Source: Trueperaceae bacterium
GTDB taxonomy: Bacteria > Deinococcota > Deinococci > Deinococcales > Trueperaceae
DNA length: 64,000 nucleotides
Assembly (NCBI GenBank): GCA_965215565.1
Contig: CBDCDZ010000004.1
Location: 2,240,001 to 2,304,000 of the forward strand
Reading direction: 5' to 3'
Under the pieces are notes generated by a model. The model had not been told where the DNA came from and made no database searches. It saw only the letters and a program-made list of their open reading frames with translations. Shown here piece after piece: positions 13,066-27,361 of the stretch. The position numbers and the translations under genes are program-made. The first letter of the stretch is position 1. The number at the start of each line of letters is the position of its first letter.

Positions 13066-14634
13066 GTGTCCACTTCACCCGAATCCTTCAGCGAGCGCTA
13101 TCTCGGGGGCGCGCTGTCCGACTTTTACAGCCTCGAGCCCACCGACGTGGGCGCAGCCCTGGACCTACCGCGCGCCGCCGACAGGGACGCCCTCACCCGA
13201 GCCCTGCGCCGCTACGCCGACAAGCTGAACGCGCCAGGAGCCGTTTTCACCTCTTTGGACGCTCTGACGCACAGGGACAGTCGCGCCGTCGTCACCGGGC
13301 AACAAGTCGGACTTTTACTCGGACCGCTCTACACCCTCTCTAAAGCGGTTACGGCGGTCAATCTGGCCCGAAGGCTCAGCACTGAAGAGAAGCCCGTCGT
13401 GCCGATTTTCTGGCTCGCCTCGCAAGACGGCGACAGCGACGAGATCAATCACGCTTACCTGCTGGGCTTTGACGAGAAACTGCGCAGGCTCGAGCTTCCC
13501 CTACCCGCTGACGTGCCTGCTGGACGAATCAGGCTCGAGCCGAGTTGGGTAGAGACCGTCACTGCCTCTCTGCGCGCGCTGAGCGCTCACGAGCCCTACA
13601 AAGAGGCTTACCGAGACGAGGTGCTAGAACTCGTCTCGAGCGCCGCCGAACGCGCCGAGACGGTTGCGGACTGGTTCGCCGCAATGCTCTACGACCTCTT
13701 AGGCGCTGAGGGGCTCGTCATCCTTAACCCCTTGGAGCCCGACGTCGCGCCCCTCTTCCGCCCTACTATAGAAGCTGAGTTAGACGAGCCAAGGGCGTCC
13801 TCGCTAGCCATCAACGGCGCAGGCGAAAAGCTCCGTGAAAGGGGCTTCGCGCCGCAACTCGGGCGCGGCGAGGAGGCGACGAACCTCTTTTTAGAAGAGG
13901 ACGGTCAACGTCGCTTGCTCCGCTTTGGCGAGCCCGAGTTCTATACCGAACGCAACCTCTACACCTCGGACGACCTGAGAAAGATTCTGGACGAAGACCC
14001 GAGCCGCCTCACACCCGCCGCAGGCTTGCGCCCCATCACCCAAGACGCTGCGCTACCTACCGCCGCCACCGTCGTCGGGCCGGGCGAGCTGCGCTACTTC
14101 GCGCAACTCAAAGGGGTGTACGAAGCGCACTGCGTCGCGATGCCTCTCATCTACCCGCGCATGGAGGTCACAATCTTAGAGCCACCCGCGCGGCGTATTT
14201 TAGAAAAGTACAACCTCTCTGCTGAAGCGGTGCAAGCGGACTTTGGTTCTATCTACGACGAGTTGCTTCTAAATCTACGGGGTCACGGTGAAGCGTTCGA
14301 GCGGAGTTTGAGTGAGCTAGAGAGGGTAGCGAAAAACCTCACGGCGCACGTCGCGGCGATCGACCCGACGCTAGAACGAACCGTGGAGCGCGGCGAGGAA
14401 CACATGCGTAAGACCGTGGAACGCTTCCGCTTCAAGAGCGCGCGCGCCCTGCGCAAAAGAGACACCCTCGCGTCTGAGCAGTTCAAGCGGTTAAAAGCGC
14501 ACCTCTTGCCGACGGGCAAACCCCAAGAGCGCGTGCTGAGCCCCTTCAGCTTCTTTTTGAAACTCGGCGCGAAGAACGTGGTGGAGCGTCTTTTAGCGCT
14601 CCCCGCCGAACGCTCGCATGAGGTGAAGTTCTAG
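13066..14634 (+). CDS. bshC: Bacillithiol biosynthesis cysteine-adding enzyme
   Basis: VVTGQQVGLLLGPLYTLSK, FWLASQD, GPGELRYFAQL, PQERVL. Confidence 0.92.
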   Translation: MSTSPESFSERYLGGALSDFYSLEPTDVGAALDLPRAADRDALTRALRRYADKLNAPGAVFTSLDALTHRDSRAVVTGQQVGLLLGPLYTLSKAVTAVNLARRLSTEEKPVVPIFWLASQDGDSDEINHAYLLGFDEKLRRLELPLPADVPAGRIRLEPSWVETVTASLRALSAHEPYKEAYRDEVLELVSSAAERAETVADWFAAMLYDLLGAEGLVILNPLEPDVAPLFRPTIEAELDEPRASSLAINGAGEKLRERGFAPQLGRGEEATNLFLEEDGQRRLLRFGEPEFYTERNLYTSDDLRKILDEDPSRLTPAAGLRPITQDAALPTAATVVGPGELRYFAQLKGVYEAHCVAMPLIYPRMEVTILEPPARRILEKYNLSAEAVQADFGSIYDELLLNLRGHGEAFERSLSELERVAKNLTAHVAAIDPTLERTVERGEEHMRKTVERFRFKSARALRKRDTLASEQFKRLKAHLLPTGKPQERVLSPFSFFLKLGAKNVVERLLALPAERSHEVKF

Positions 14635-16487: not shown

Positions 16488-16677
16488 GATGTAGATGCCC
16501 GGCTTATTCCGGGTTTGAATATGTTGACCACGGCTAGTTTACCTCTGCAATTCAAGCGGCGCGAAGTTAAGCGGTTGAATGGTGGAGGGGCGGCGGAGAT
16601 ACTTTGCGCTTAATCGCCCGAGCCCCCATCCTACCTGCTAAACTGAGTTTATCCGCATTTGTAAATGGAGAAAAATT

Positions 16678-16878
16678 ATGCGCGACTTTTTTAGAGAACT
16701 AGGGAAGATCGAGATTAGTCCTTTAGGGTTAATCGTAGTGGTAGCGGTTGGCTATATCGCTCTTATTTCTGCGCTAGCGTCTTATATAGGCGAGCCAGAC
16801 TTAGTAGTGAGCAACGTAGCGGCTCTAGGAGGAGCCTTTTTAGGCTCTTTCCTCATGTCAGCCCTTTTAAGTCGGTAA
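16678..16878 (+). CDS. Small 2-TM membrane protein
   Basis: GGAG SD before ATG; two hydrophobic segments; downstream hairpin. Confidence 0.6.
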   Translation: MRDFFRELGKIEISPLGLIVVVAVGYIALISALASYIGEPDLVVSNVAALGGAFLGSFLMSALLSR

Positions 16879-16925
16879 CCCTAGCTGTCACCGAAAGCTG
16901 AATTTACCCTTTAGTTTTTGGTACG

Positions 16926-16961
16926 GAGATGTAGGCTTACGCCTGCATCTCTTCACTTTTT
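16926..16961 (+). terminator. Probable intrinsic terminator
   Basis: GAGATGTAGGC-TTAC-GCCTGCATCTC followed by TTCACTTTTT. Confidence 0.55.
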
Positions 16962-17090
16962 GCTCAGAGCGTAGGCGTAAGGGGATGGAATCCCCTCTGT
17001 CAACCTTGCGTTCTTCGCCAGGGCGCAGGTGATCGCTGGGTCTCGAGCTTTCTCACTTTCCCCCCTCAAAGAGGTGCGCTACACTGCGCT

Positions 17091-17717
17091 ATGGATTTTC
17101 AAACGGAGCGCGAACTCAAATTTTCTTTAATGGACGAGTCGCTAGAAGAGGAGGCGTTGCAACTCGGCTTGGAGACGGAGGGTTTCAGCCTCGGACCTCA
17201 GCGTGTGGAGGTGCACCGTGACCTCTACTTCGACACGAGAAGAGGTCATTTGGAGCGCTCAGGCTTGGCGCTCAGGCGGCGCGTGATCAACGGCGGCGCG
17301 CCTCTCGCGACGCTCAAGGCGGCGGGCACGGCGCGGGGGGCGTTGCACGTCAGGGACGAGCTAGAGCTTCCATTCGAGGGTGAGGCGTGGCCGCGAGAGG
17401 TCCGCATGAGAGTGGCGGAGGTTGCGCCGCTCATCTCGCTGCAGCCCGTGGTGGCGCTGACGACGGAGCGCACCCGCTACCTCGTAGGGCGCAGAGGGGA
17501 AGAGGTGGCAGAGCTATCTTTCGATAGCGTGGAGGCGAAACGCTCGGGGGAAGAGGTGAGCGTGCATTTTGCGGAGTTAGAAATCGAGGCGCTACGGGCG
17601 GACGCTGACTTGGAGCGTATCGCGGGGGTGCTCGGTAAACTCTTAGCGCTCACCCCGAGCGGCGTGAATAAGCTAGAGCGCGCTTTGGCCCTTCTCAGTT
17701 TGGGCGCGTGGGCTTAA
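17091..17717 (+). CDS. CYTH domain protein
   Basis: ERELKF, DLYFDT, LALRRR, TLK and ELEIE motifs. Confidence 0.9.
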   Translation: MDFQTERELKFSLMDESLEEEALQLGLETEGFSLGPQRVEVHRDLYFDTRRGHLERSGLALRRRVINGGAPLATLKAAGTARGALHVRDELELPFEGEAWPREVRMRVAEVAPLISLQPVVALTTERTRYLVGRRGEEVAELSFDSVEAKRSGEEVSVHFAELEIEALRADADLERIAGVLGKLLALTPSGVNKLERALALLSLGAWA

Positions 17718-17741
17718 ACCTATGGATTTGGGAGCACAAGT

Positions 17742-18311
17742 GTGACGCTCTACCTCATTCGCCACGCGCAAGCCGACGCGCGCGGACCCAAATATCCTGA
17801 CGACAGTCTTCGTCCACTCGTTGCCAAAGGTCACAAGCAAGCAAAGGCGCTAGCGAGGGCGTTTCATGTTCTTGGCGTACGGTTGGATAGACTGTTCTCG
17901 AGCCCCTACACTAGAGCGCTGGAGACCGCCCAGCCGTTGGGGGAGCAGCTCGAGGTGAAAGTTGAAACGCTCGCCGAACTGACCTCTTCGCGTTATCCAC
18001 AGCTCTTGGGGCGGCTTGTGGATAAGGGTGTGGATAAGGGTGTGGACAACCTCATGCACGAAGGGGCGAGCGAACCTGTGGATAAGGGTGTGGATAACTC
18101 GAGAAGTAGCACCGCAGACGGCGCGCACGTCGCCCTCGTCGGTCACGAACCCTACCTGAGCGAGCTGACCTCTTACCTCTTGACGGGGGACGCTTGGGAG
18201 GTCAGCATAAAATTCAAAAAAGCGATGGTGGTGCAACTCGGGGGACGCTTGGAGGCGGGTAAAATGACGCTTCAAATGATGACGCCCGTGAGCGTGTACA
18301 GGAAGTTTTAG
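17742..18311 (+). CDS. sixA: Phosphohistidine phosphatase SixA with an internal VDKG-repeat insertion
   Basis: LYLIRHA, SSPYTRALETA, ALVGHEP; adjacent to the CYTH gene. Confidence 0.85.
   Translation: MTLYLIRHAQADARGPKYPDDSLRPLVAKGHKQAKALARAFHVLGVRLDRLFSSPYTRALETAQPLGEQLEVKVETLAELTSSRYPQLLGRLVDKGVDKGVDNLMHEGASEPVDKGVDNSRSSTADGAHVALVGHEPYLSELTSYLLTGDAWEVSIKFKKAMVVQLGGRLEAGKMTLQMMTPVSVYRKF
17993..18097. promoter_or_regulatory. Cluster of six DnaA boxes inside sixA
   Basis: TTATCCACA at 17993-18001; TGTGGATAA at 18017, 18029, 18077 and 18089; TGTGGACAA at 18041. Confidence 0.85.
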
Positions 18312-18369
18312 CGCGCAGCTTCGTTCTATAGCGCCTACTCCGCCCTCGCGAGGTCCGTTATGGTGAGCT

Positions 18370-19314
18370 ATGGAGAGAGTGGAAGAACGTCCTGTTTTAG
18401 TCATCGCGGGTGCGTCCGGTGTCGTCGGTACGCACCTCATCCATCAGGCTAGAGAGCGCTACAACATCCGCATCCTGACGCGCCGCAGCAACATCCAAAC
18501 GCCTGCGGGCGTCACGCCTGTCGTGTGGAACCCGACTGCGGCTAAAGAGGGAGACGAGGCGGCGCTGCTCAGCGTCGGTGAAGCGCTTTCGGGCGCGGCG
18601 GCGCTCGTCAACCTTGCGGGTGCGTCGATTGCGGACGGAAGGCTGGGCGAAGACCATAAACGCCGCGTCCTGGAGAGCCGCGTCGACAGCACGAAGACGC
18701 TTTTGGCAGCGCATAAACGTAGCGCCGCGCCGCCGGGCGTCTGGCTGCAAGGCTCAGCGACGGGCTATTACGGCGACGCGGGCGAACGCGAACTCACAGA
18801 GGACGCGCCGAGCGCCGAGGATTTCTTTCTCGCGGACGTGTGTAAAGCGTGGGAAGCAGCCGCCGAGAACGCGAACGGTGCACGTCTCATCGTCAGCCGC
18901 ACCGGGCTCGTTCTCGCCCAAGATGCCCCCGCGTGGCAAAAAATGCTCTTGCCCATCAAACTTTTCGTGGGCGGGCGCTTCGGCGACGGCGAGCAGTGGT
19001 ATCCGTGGATCGACGCCGACGACCTCGCGCGGGCGCTGCTCTTTCTTACCGAAAATAGCGAGAGTAAAGGCGTCTACAACCTCTCTGCGCCGGAGCCCGT
19101 GCGCCAGATTGAGCTTGTCGAGCGGGCAGCGCGGCGCTTAGGACGCCCCGCCATCTTCCCCACACCTGCGCCGCTCCTGCGCCTAGCCATTGGTGAAGTC
19201 GCGGACGCGCTCCTCTTGCCGAGCGCCAAGGTGATACCAGCGAAGCTGCAAGCCGAAGGCTTCACCTTTCAGCGCGCGCATATAGGGGATGAATTGGATA
19301 AGCTTCTCGCCTGA
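18370..19314 (+). CDS. TIGR01777-family NAD-dependent epimerase (YfcH-like)
   Basis: IAGASGVVG, VNLAG, SATGYYG, GGRFGDGEQWYPWI. Confidence 0.92.
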   Translation: MERVEERPVLVIAGASGVVGTHLIHQARERYNIRILTRRSNIQTPAGVTPVVWNPTAAKEGDEAALLSVGEALSGAAALVNLAGASIADGRLGEDHKRRVLESRVDSTKTLLAAHKRSAAPPGVWLQGSATGYYGDAGERELTEDAPSAEDFFLADVCKAWEAAAENANGARLIVSRTGLVLAQDAPAWQKMLLPIKLFVGGRFGDGEQWYPWIDADDLARALLFLTENSESKGVYNLSAPEPVRQIELVERAARRLGRPAIFPTPAPLLRLAIGEVADALLLPSAKVIPAKLQAEGFTFQRAHIGDELDKLLA

Positions 19315-19402
19315 AGTCTATCTTTTGGAAAAAATATGTACATTCTGACATTTCCCTAGCGCTCACCCCGTCACCGCCCGTTTCTTGGTACGCTAGTTCA
19401 CT

Positions 19403-20131
19403 ATGTCCAAGCTTTCTCCGTCCACCTTACGCGGCTACCTCGTGCACGTTTACACCGCCTCGACGCTCATCTTCGTGACGCTGGCAGCGCAGTGGATCAT
19501 CGAGGGGACCTACCGCTGGGCGTTGGCCGCGCTCGCCGTGACCATCATTATCGACGCCACCGACGGCGCGTTGGCGCGCAAGTGGCGCGTGAAGGAGACG
19601 GCGGCGGGCATCGACGGCGAACTGCTCGACAACATCGTGGACTTCGTCTCGTACGTCGTGGTGCCGATGCTCTTTATGCTCCAAGCGCAGATGTTCACCC
19701 CGCCGATGACGCTCTGGATGGCGTTCGCGATGTTCGCGAGTGCGTTCGGGTTCTCGCGCACCACCGCCAAACTCGCCAACGAGGGCTTTTTCGTCGGCTT
19801 CCCCTCGTACTGGAATATCATTGTGTTTTACCTCTACTTGCTCCAGACGCCGCCCTTGCTCAACACGGTGCTCGTCGTGCTGCTCTCGCTCTCAGTGTTC
19901 GTGCCGCTGCGCTTTCTCTATGTGAGCCGCTTGTCCAAGGGGCGCACGCTGCACCTCGGGCTCGGCTTCATCTGGGGTGTTCTGTGCCTCGCAGCACTCG
20001 CCATGGAGGCGAGTACGGTGCGCACGCTCATCTTGTATCTCTCGCTCGTCTACCCGCTCTACTACACGGCGCACTCGCTCCAGCTCGACTTCAAACTGCG
20101 CCAAGAGCAGCGCGAAGCCCTTGCGGACTGA
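19403..20131 (+). CDS. CDP-alcohol phosphatidyltransferase, phosphatidylcholine-synthase-like
   Basis: VHVYTAS, DATDGALAR...DGELLDNIVD, FVGFPSYWN. Confidence 0.85.
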   Translation: MSKLSPSTLRGYLVHVYTASTLIFVTLAAQWIIEGTYRWALAALAVTIIIDATDGALARKWRVKETAAGIDGELLDNIVDFVSYVVVPMLFMLQAQMFTPPMTLWMAFAMFASAFGFSRTTAKLANEGFFVGFPSYWNIIVFYLYLLQTPPLLNTVLVVLLSLSVFVPLRFLYVSRLSKGRTLHLGLGFIWGVLCLAALAMEASTVRTLILYLSLVYPLYYTAHSLQLDFKLRQEQREALAD

Positions 20132-26991: not shown

Positions 26992-27361
26992 TCACCAAAC
27001 TTTACGGCACGCAGGGCGAGAAGTAAAGGTTCGTTTCTTACAGTTCGCCTTCTGAAGCGTTCTTGGCTGCAACTCCTGCGGTAGAGGGGAGTTTGATGCT
27101 AGATAGCAGGCCAGCTTCGCGAGCTACCGTTGATACCGCTGCTTCAACTCTTAAAACGCCTAGTTCTTGAAAGATACGCCTTGTACCAGCGCTGCAAACC
27201 CGGGGTGTGCGTACTGCTCTAACTTTGTCTATCGCATTGTGAAAAATCCTCTAAACGGTGTCACCCAAGTGCTTGTGGTTTTTCGAACATCCTCGCCCTA
27301 CACAGTCTCTAAGTACAGGTGTATCTATAGCGGAATAGGGATTCTATGCTTCACTAAGTTT

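Follow-up and report, generated by a model that had tools for sequence, protein, structure and literature searches.

An in-frame array of DnaA boxes in a sixA-like gene of a Trueperaceae bacterium is a probable dual-coded DnaA-binding site

Why does a short stretch inside an intact protein-coding gene carry six DnaA boxes? Outside the origin, DnaA sites have been described almost exclusively as intergenic elements, and in a few model species; such an array also touches on the question of how Deinococcota restrain DnaA without the regulators of Escherichia coli or Bacillus. Here we follow up an original prediction, made for a window of 64,000 nucleotides (assembly GCA_965215565.1, contig CBDCDZ010000004.1, positions 2,240,001 to 2,304,000), that a sixA gene of a Trueperaceae bacterium encodes in frame a box cluster that doubles as a replication-control locus. 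Positions given without a contig name are those of the window; C4 denotes the chromosome contig of the source genome (G000), and G001, G002, G005 and G054 are relatives to which we refer repeatedly.

Results

Six boxes in frame in an intact gene

The features of the locus are as follows.

17091..17717, + strand: CYTH-domain gene (PF01928), 24 bp upstream of sixA
17742..18311, + strand: sixA-like phosphohistidine phosphatase gene (open reading frame; TIGR00249, PF00300), 189 aa, frame intact
17993..18001, + strand: box 1, perfect, in the opposite orientation to boxes 2-6; overlaps codons R-Y-P-Q at the start of helix 85-97
18017..18049, - strand: proximal triple, boxes 2 (18017-18025) and 3 (18029-18037) perfect, box 4 (18041-18049) with one mismatch; 3-bp spacers; LVDK-GVDK-GVDN
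18039..18113, + strand: predicted disordered loop, residues 100-124 (AlphaFold2 pLDDT); hosts boxes 4-6
18077..18097, - strand: distal double box, boxes 5 (18077-18085) and 6 (18089-18097), both perfect; 3-bp spacer; PVDK-GVDN
18370..19314, + strand: TIGR01777 (YfcH-like) oxidoreductase gene, downstream of sixA

The sequence TTATCCACA occurs on the + strand at 17993 and on the - strand at 18017, 18029, 18077 and 18089; with the box at 18041, which has a single mismatch, this makes six boxes in 105 bp, in frame in sixA and at the positions predicted. The claim that the window holds no further perfect box was likewise borne out, in that the six matches to TTWTNCACA in the window are five sixA boxes and a single degenerate site at 27238. 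Shuffles of the window gave a mean of 1.58 such matches, and 1 of 100 reached six, a comparison that ignores clustering. A 12-bp repeat had also been proposed; it holds within the groups 18017/18029/18041 and 18077/18089, but the two groups stand 36 bp apart. Five of the boxes thus form three same-direction pairs, each 3 bp apart and each qualifying as a double DnaA box (two same-direction boxes with a gap of 2-3 bp), and the 12-bp unit encodes xVD[KN]. Of the 2- and 3-bp gaps only the latter keeps the frame, so any double box within coding sequence has to appear on this strand as xVD[KN]-xVD[KN].

From YPQL to the strand before GHEP the product has 41 residues, versus 17 in the shortest close homologues. 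The insertion amounts to ~24-27 residues, 20 of which are box units, rather than the ~30 originally estimated, and box 1 lies outside it, encoding RYPQ of a conserved helix. A contig of the same sample matches 17500-18185 with zero differences, and a ~90%-identical contig from another study spans 17500-18199 with 69 differing letters and no gap. The length of the array is therefore not private to the assembly.

The open reading frame passes the TIGR00249 (sixA) cut-off narrowly (76.2 versus 74.5 bits), its structural model matches E. coli SixA (1ujb; E 2.6e-12 in a structure comparison), and among 39 homologues R7, R58 and H135 are invariant and H8 is nearly so. The gene product thus combines the family score, the fold and the RH...R...H residues of SixA, the last of which we take to be catalytic. 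The AlphaFold2 model has a mean pLDDT of 87.8 and falls below 50 at residues 100-110 and 114-124 alone, which agrees with the tolerant loop postulated earlier; boxes 2-3 correspond to the end of the helix that precedes this loop in the model. The CYTH gene adjoins sixA also in G001, G002, G005 and G054.

The array is distinct from the origin of replication

The origin, a cluster of 13 boxes, occupies C4:2668750-2668944 between dnaA (C4:2669673-2671022) and dnaN and is nearly identical in G001, G002 and G005. It shows a box-GC spacer-trio arrangement with an AT-rich flank (the trio being judged by eye against the available sections of PMC8287927), and its best 40 bp reach 80% AT. The sixA array lies 411 kb from this cluster, its best 40 bp reach at most 60% AT, and inspection by eye found no trio run beside its boxes, such a run being seen at oriC only. 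The view that the array is not oriC, having neither dnaA/dnaN nor an AT-rich unwinding element nearby, was therefore upheld. Cumulative GC skew is weak on C4, with a minimum at 3.15 Mb and a maximum at 0.29 Mb versus dnaA at 2.67 Mb, and the contig ends do not overlap; because the skew does not turn at the dnaA locus, the distance between array and origin is provisional. In G000, G001 and G005 this distance is 411, 215 and 201 kb (9.4, 4.7 and 4.5% of the contig). The array is on the other side of oriC in G005 and on a different contig from oriC in G002.

Box groups in the genome and in the family

The chromosome contig carries 37 perfect boxes, a number that is unremarkable, as it is reached by 166 of 1680 9-mers of the same composition. 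The arrangement is more telling: TGTGGATAA is the 9-mer with the most tandem loci (period 10-13), with 5 loci, among 548 9-mers having any, and 69,498 of the 69,691 9-mers seen 15-60 times have none. When loci with two copies within 60 bp were counted, one other 9-mer of the same composition also had 5. We counted 12 double boxes in the genome (2-3 bp gap, one perfect box, partner with at most two mismatches): four at oriC, three in sixA, two at trpF, two in a channel gene and one beside ilvD. Three of the eight double boxes outside oriC thus sit in sixA. With six boxes in 105 bp, judged against the tandem 9-mer control, the array is a non-origin cluster in the sense of at least four boxes that lie close together away from oriC more often than chance allows. 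The genome has four non-origin box groups in all, the others being at the trpF 3' end, upstream of probable ilvD and in frame in an ion-channel gene (PF07885), so that the array is not the unique control locus that had been envisaged. A perfect tandem box pair was present in 47 of 128 family genomes, origins and the unpublished genome G110 included, and in none of the 128 for the reversed control.

The non-origin cluster at or behind the trpF 3' end (C4:2727217-2727421 in G000; L160 and L207, loci L194-L223) recurs in the family: 26 of the 29 genomes parsed contain at least three boxes within 500 bp, counting boxes with at most one mismatch. The count was 0/29 upstream and 0/29 for the reversed control, and L209, which has no anchor motif, was dropped. 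The arrangement is conserved, with same-direction boxes and an opposed pair (its gap often 4 bp) followed, after ~130-155 bp, by one or two more boxes. Some of these boxes overlap the last trpF codons.

The ion-channel gene contains three perfect in-frame boxes, 3 bp apart, that read LVDK-PVDK-SVDN (C4:3502474-3502506; L158, L176). Its G001 orthologue (88% identical) has a shorter, box-free IDNSADN, and no match was found at the repeat position of the G002 orthologue (L178); the triple may be either a recent gain or a sequence that decayed in G001. A perfect double box at C4:3190716-3190736 (L159), upstream of a gene that we take to be ilvD, is identical in G001 (L044). Intergenic perfect double boxes with 2-bp gaps were seen in G001 (L042, L043) and G002 (L045), with no perfect pair at the matching places of the source genome, which points to site turnover within the genus. 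Elsewhere in the family, in-frame double boxes occur as AVDK-AVDK in G018 (L175:1978-1998), presumably in a gene for a ribosome hibernation factor-like protein, and as AVDK-VVDK in G046 (L167:2046-2066), presumably in a DNA methyltransferase gene.

The xVD[KN] unit in homologous proteins

Of 138 homologues found, 120 were listed; those that carry a taxonomic name are Trueperaceae. As close homologues we took the 25 that were nearest in identity and loop type, with the query among them, and apart from the genomes with readable DNA these are proteins only. Two to five VD[KN] units were present in 15 of the 25, one in six and none in four, whereas none of the 94 other parsed, more distant homologues among the matches listed had a unit; P0047, which lacks the GHEP anchor, was dropped from this comparison. 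With at least two units in 15 of 25 close homologues, the array is not an isolated recent slippage product; its conservation, which had been raised for the whole phylum, extends over a genus-level clade and not phylum-wide. Because the 25 close homologues are kin, these counts are not independent.

The peptide varies within narrow bounds. Among the close homologues, 58 of 61 VD dipeptides continue with K or N (background 6%), the two residues that GTG-GAT-AA permits. Eight amino acids (L, P, G, A, V, S, I and D) occur directly before the unit; M, W, K, Q and E, none of which has a codon ending in T, precede none of the 58 units, compared with frequencies of 22% in the proteome and 13% in the remainder of the loop. 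In 41 of 42 intervals the distance between units is a multiple of four residues, and 14 of the 25 contain the peptide of the distal pair, xVD[KR]xVDN. VNK variants would also fit TTWTNCACA if coded GTG-AAT-AA. The 15 proteins with an array share 68-93% identity in their cores (median 77%), and their flanking loop residues diverge.

In a tree of 33 sequences, built without the loop and with a weakly supported backbone, the short-loop group P0014/15/18/19/30 was placed among array-bearing sequences, which suggests that the array was lost in this subclade. Within one 90% cluster the units decay, as seen in P0003 versus P0122. The same loop holds long, unrelated, box-free low-complexity insertions, Ser/Asp-rich in G002 (L003) and Lys/Ala-rich in G005 (L004), so this loop takes insertions anyway.

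Boxes retained at the DNA level

We tried 42 sixA genes and aligned 41, L069 being dropped for want of a parsable gene. A perfect box is present in 4 of the 41, namely those of the source genome, G001, G002 and G005; among the remaining 37, which include G110, four hold one scattered one-mismatch match. The gene of G001 has two reverse perfect boxes 3 bp apart, that of G002 a forward and a reverse perfect box 15 bp apart, and that of G005 a perfect forward box and a reverse box with one mismatch, separated by 6 bp. The box 2 position is perfect in both G001 and G002, and box 1 is perfect in G002 and G005 and absent in G054, a member of the genus of G005 whose sixA is without any box. A scan of metagenomes for the locus returned 80 loci at 30-38% identity, none of them close.

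At four-fold sites of sixA beyond the array, identity to G001, G002 and G005 is 74, 51 and 43%. VD[KN] is encoded as a perfect box in 4 of 251 cases elsewhere in the genome, compared with 4/5 in sixA, 2/2 in that of G001 and 1/1 in that of G002. Using the share of codons retained in 27, 20 and 11 orthologous genes (G001, G002, G005), we estimated the neutral probability of retention per box as 0.095 for G001 (two kept), 0.080 and 0.108 for G002 (both kept) and 0.002 for box 1 of G005 (kept), figures that assume independent sites and a conserved peptide and that concern sites picked after the fact. Three relatives thus keep perfect boxes in rare codons, with DNA readable for three genomes of the genus. 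A kept peptide with destroyed boxes, named beforehand as evidence against DNA-level function, was encountered in part: box 1 of G001 was lost through two synonymous changes with RYPQ kept, and 4 of the 25 close homologues are without VD[KN]. Dual coding under DNA-level constraint is supported by perfect boxes kept in rare codons and by a peptide that varies as the DNA motif permits. Judged from the genes and proteins of these relatives, our comparison shows that box retention across the genus-level clade follows the DNA motif rather than the peptide.

Discussion

On these sequence comparisons we hold it highly probable that the array has been under DNA-level selection for DnaA binding, and this stretch of DNA probably doubles as coding sequence and DnaA docking site. 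We favor, as a reasonably likely account of its role, an auxiliary non-origin DnaA-binding site, dual-coded and similar to the Bacillus clusters, that would titrate DnaA. The titration reading draws on the several box groups per genome at changing places, on the regulators that the genome appears to lack and on precedents in B. subtilis and E. coli. PF00308 has one match only in the genome (there being no Hda-like second DnaA-family gene), and no YabA or SeqA was found in this genome, which is 99.99% complete. Deletion of six non-origin clusters leads to early initiation in B. subtilis (PMC3245932, available text), and evidence for DnaA titration in E. coli is given in the accessible part of a preprint (bioRxiv 10.1101/2024.10.07.617004). 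The loss of box 1 in G001, the box-free sixA of G054, the varying copy number and a subclade without the array count against titration. So do the ordinary total of boxes, the box-free insertions that the same loop takes, the missing ion-channel triple of G001, the intergenic position of all eight stable B. subtilis sites (PMC2533591), and a strong in-vitro DnaA site inside rplB that is unbound in vivo, possibly owing to transcription (PMC4447404).

That DnaA could recognize such boxes is consistent with work on a relative: Deinococcus radiodurans DnaA binds TTATCCACA, with a Kd of 2.9 uM for a single box and of 0.37 uM for seven (PMC7988490, in part). In E. coli, DnaA binds in vivo mainly to pairs 2-3 bp apart, and most of this binding is lost when the gap is 4 bp (PMC11317965, in part). 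The local DnaA keeps R399, P423, D433, H434 and T436. We take these to be most of the residues that read the box.

Such an array could have arisen in steps. A near-match in the helix end (LVD[KN]) may have become a box, after which 12-bp units would have been gained, lost and decayed by slippage in a loop that tolerates them, with 9 + 3 bp as the one preferred spacing that keeps the frame. Selection would then keep at least one double box, and DnaA dimers would bind the pairs and be kept from oriC. The sixA array and the trpF, ilvD-side and ion-channel groups may jointly buffer free DnaA and restrain early initiation, each site contributing part of the effect.

By analogy, the sixA array would work most like a B. 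subtilis DnaA-box cluster built of double boxes, although it is not intergenic. Like those clusters, it belongs to a set of dense consensus groups off oriC, several per chromosome, partly conserved and partly lineage-specific, and it may likewise lie within a fraction of the chromosome from the origin (PMC2533591 and PMC3245932, available sections). Unlike the eight stable B. subtilis sites, all of which are intergenic according to the accessible text of PMC2533591, it is inside an intact gene, where it dictates, in frame, a tetrapeptide repeat. For the B. subtilis clusters both binding and a deletion phenotype were shown (PMC2533591 and PMC3245932, in part), whereas the sixA array is known from sequence. 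Its three same-direction pairs, 3 bp apart, also resemble the double DnaA boxes of E. coli (Stringer 2024; PMC11317965, in part). There, as far as the available text goes, one box is usually degenerate and the pairs are mostly upstream of genes, with 2 of 16 regions intragenic (PMC11317965), whereas in sixA both boxes are perfect in two pairs and lie within a coding loop.

The E. coli datA locus lies about a tenth of the chromosome from oriC. The sixA array is likewise a non-origin cluster, at a provisional distance of roughly a tenth of the chromosome from oriC, and could in principle titrate DnaA as well. ATP hydrolysis driven by datA depends on an IHF site located between its boxes 2 and 3 (PMC5835720, accessible part); four PF00216 (HU/IHF-family) genes are present in the source genome.

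A more far-reaching version of the titration reading, which we offer as a speculative possibility, is that this clade, for which our searches returned no Hda, SeqA or YabA, may tune initiation by mobile 12-bp double-box modules that arise, expand and decay in tolerant protein loops. The gene sixA presumably acts in phosphate or stress signalling; RNA polymerase passing through it would clear the array of DnaA and make it a transcription-switched sink that gates free or reactivated DnaA, beside a family-wide DARS/datA-like trpF element.

Several other explanations have to be weighed. Bound DnaA might act locally, as a roadblock or attenuator of a CYTH-sixA-yfcH transcript whose level would thereby be tied to the replication cycle. 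Roadblocks by DnaA inside transcribed regions have been described (PMC11317965, in part), and the three genes are closely spaced and kept together in G001 and G002, where the yfcH-like gene is also a neighbor of sixA. It is, however, absent from the 12-kb loci of G005 and G054 and thus unlinked from sixA there, a promoter scan of 16500-19500 (a weak test) found no sigma-70-like promoter, and a search of the open literature found no SixA-DnaA link. As double boxes at unrelated, changing loci in the genus fit a site count better than the control of one operon, we regard a local effect as rather unlikely.

The repeat could also be neutral or nearly so, with a chance box in the helix end, 12-bp duplications, and persistence by recent common descent. 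Slippage alone would explain the four-residue lattice, and a copy number from 0 to 6, box-free insertions in the same loop and the decay seen between P0003 and P0122 are what such a process would leave. It accounts less well for units kept across cores of 68-93% identity while the flanking loop diverges, for spacer residues that vary while the third-position constraint holds, for rare codons kept despite 26-57% divergence at four-fold sites, and for the DnaA box being the top tandem 9-mer of the genome. We consider neutrality unlikely.

A DARS-like element, in which boxes 1 and 2 would hold a head-to-head DnaA dimer, release ADP and reactivate DnaA, is suggested by the box order of E. coli DARS1, in which boxes I and II are opposed and III is oriented as II, with a 3-bp gap between the reverse boxes. 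The forward-reverse pair is kept in G002 and, with a 6-bp gap, in G005. The 15-bp gap of the source genome and G002 is about one helical turn beyond the 5 bp of DARS1 and DARS2, but it is not 5 bp; box 1 is lost in G001, the array is coding and not intergenic, and E. coli Q208, which is needed for DARS activity, is Asn here, at N191 (PMC6868365, accessible text). We did not file the array as a DARS because the 5-bp gap and Q208 are missing. The trpF cluster, which is more conserved and has a 4-bp opposed pair in many genomes, would be the better DARS- or datA-like candidate, and a DARS function of the sixA array appears quite unlikely.

Selection on the peptide itself, with xVD[KN] as an extended amphipathic helix or a SixA binding motif and the boxes as a by-product, would fit the well-kept VDKGVDN and a first unit in a predicted helix. 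It is very unlikely given that Pro or Gly precedes 27 of the 58 units, that the loop is predicted to be disordered and that K and N interchange; nor would it explain the codon choice. Although six boxes lie in 105 bp and GC skew does not clearly mark the dnaA locus, a second or back-up origin is extremely unlikely beside the 13-box, 80% AT origin with its trio arrangement between dnaA and dnaN, features that sixA (at most 60% AT, no trio run) does not share.

Intragenic DnaA sites as such are already in print (dnaN, yceQ, rplB and codV). In the open literature, outside which most subscription journals fall, we found no in-frame box array described for sixA or for Trueperaceae, nor any account of such arrays as a class. 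Under the titration reading, a dual-coded array offers a clean test of initiator titration, as it could be removed by silent recoding with the protein untouched. Its protein-level footprint, xVD[KN] at a four-residue period, would allow such sites to be found from protein databases alone. A regulatory DNA motif would here shape a protein sequence, and a repeat of this kind would mislead a reader who took it for a peptide motif.

Some further observations concern the neighborhood and the genome. An antisense open reading frame at 17850-18440 was rejected as a gene, since it has no Pfam match and the antisense frames of G001, G002, G005 and G054 have at least three stops each. The bacillithiol biosynthesis gene bshC (TIGR03998, above cut-off) lies 3 kb upstream at 13066-14634, and is outside the 12-kb sixA loci of the four relatives. 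A second tandem 9-mer family (GTTGCCAAA / GGTTGCCAA), also with a period of 10-13, is present at three loci of C4.
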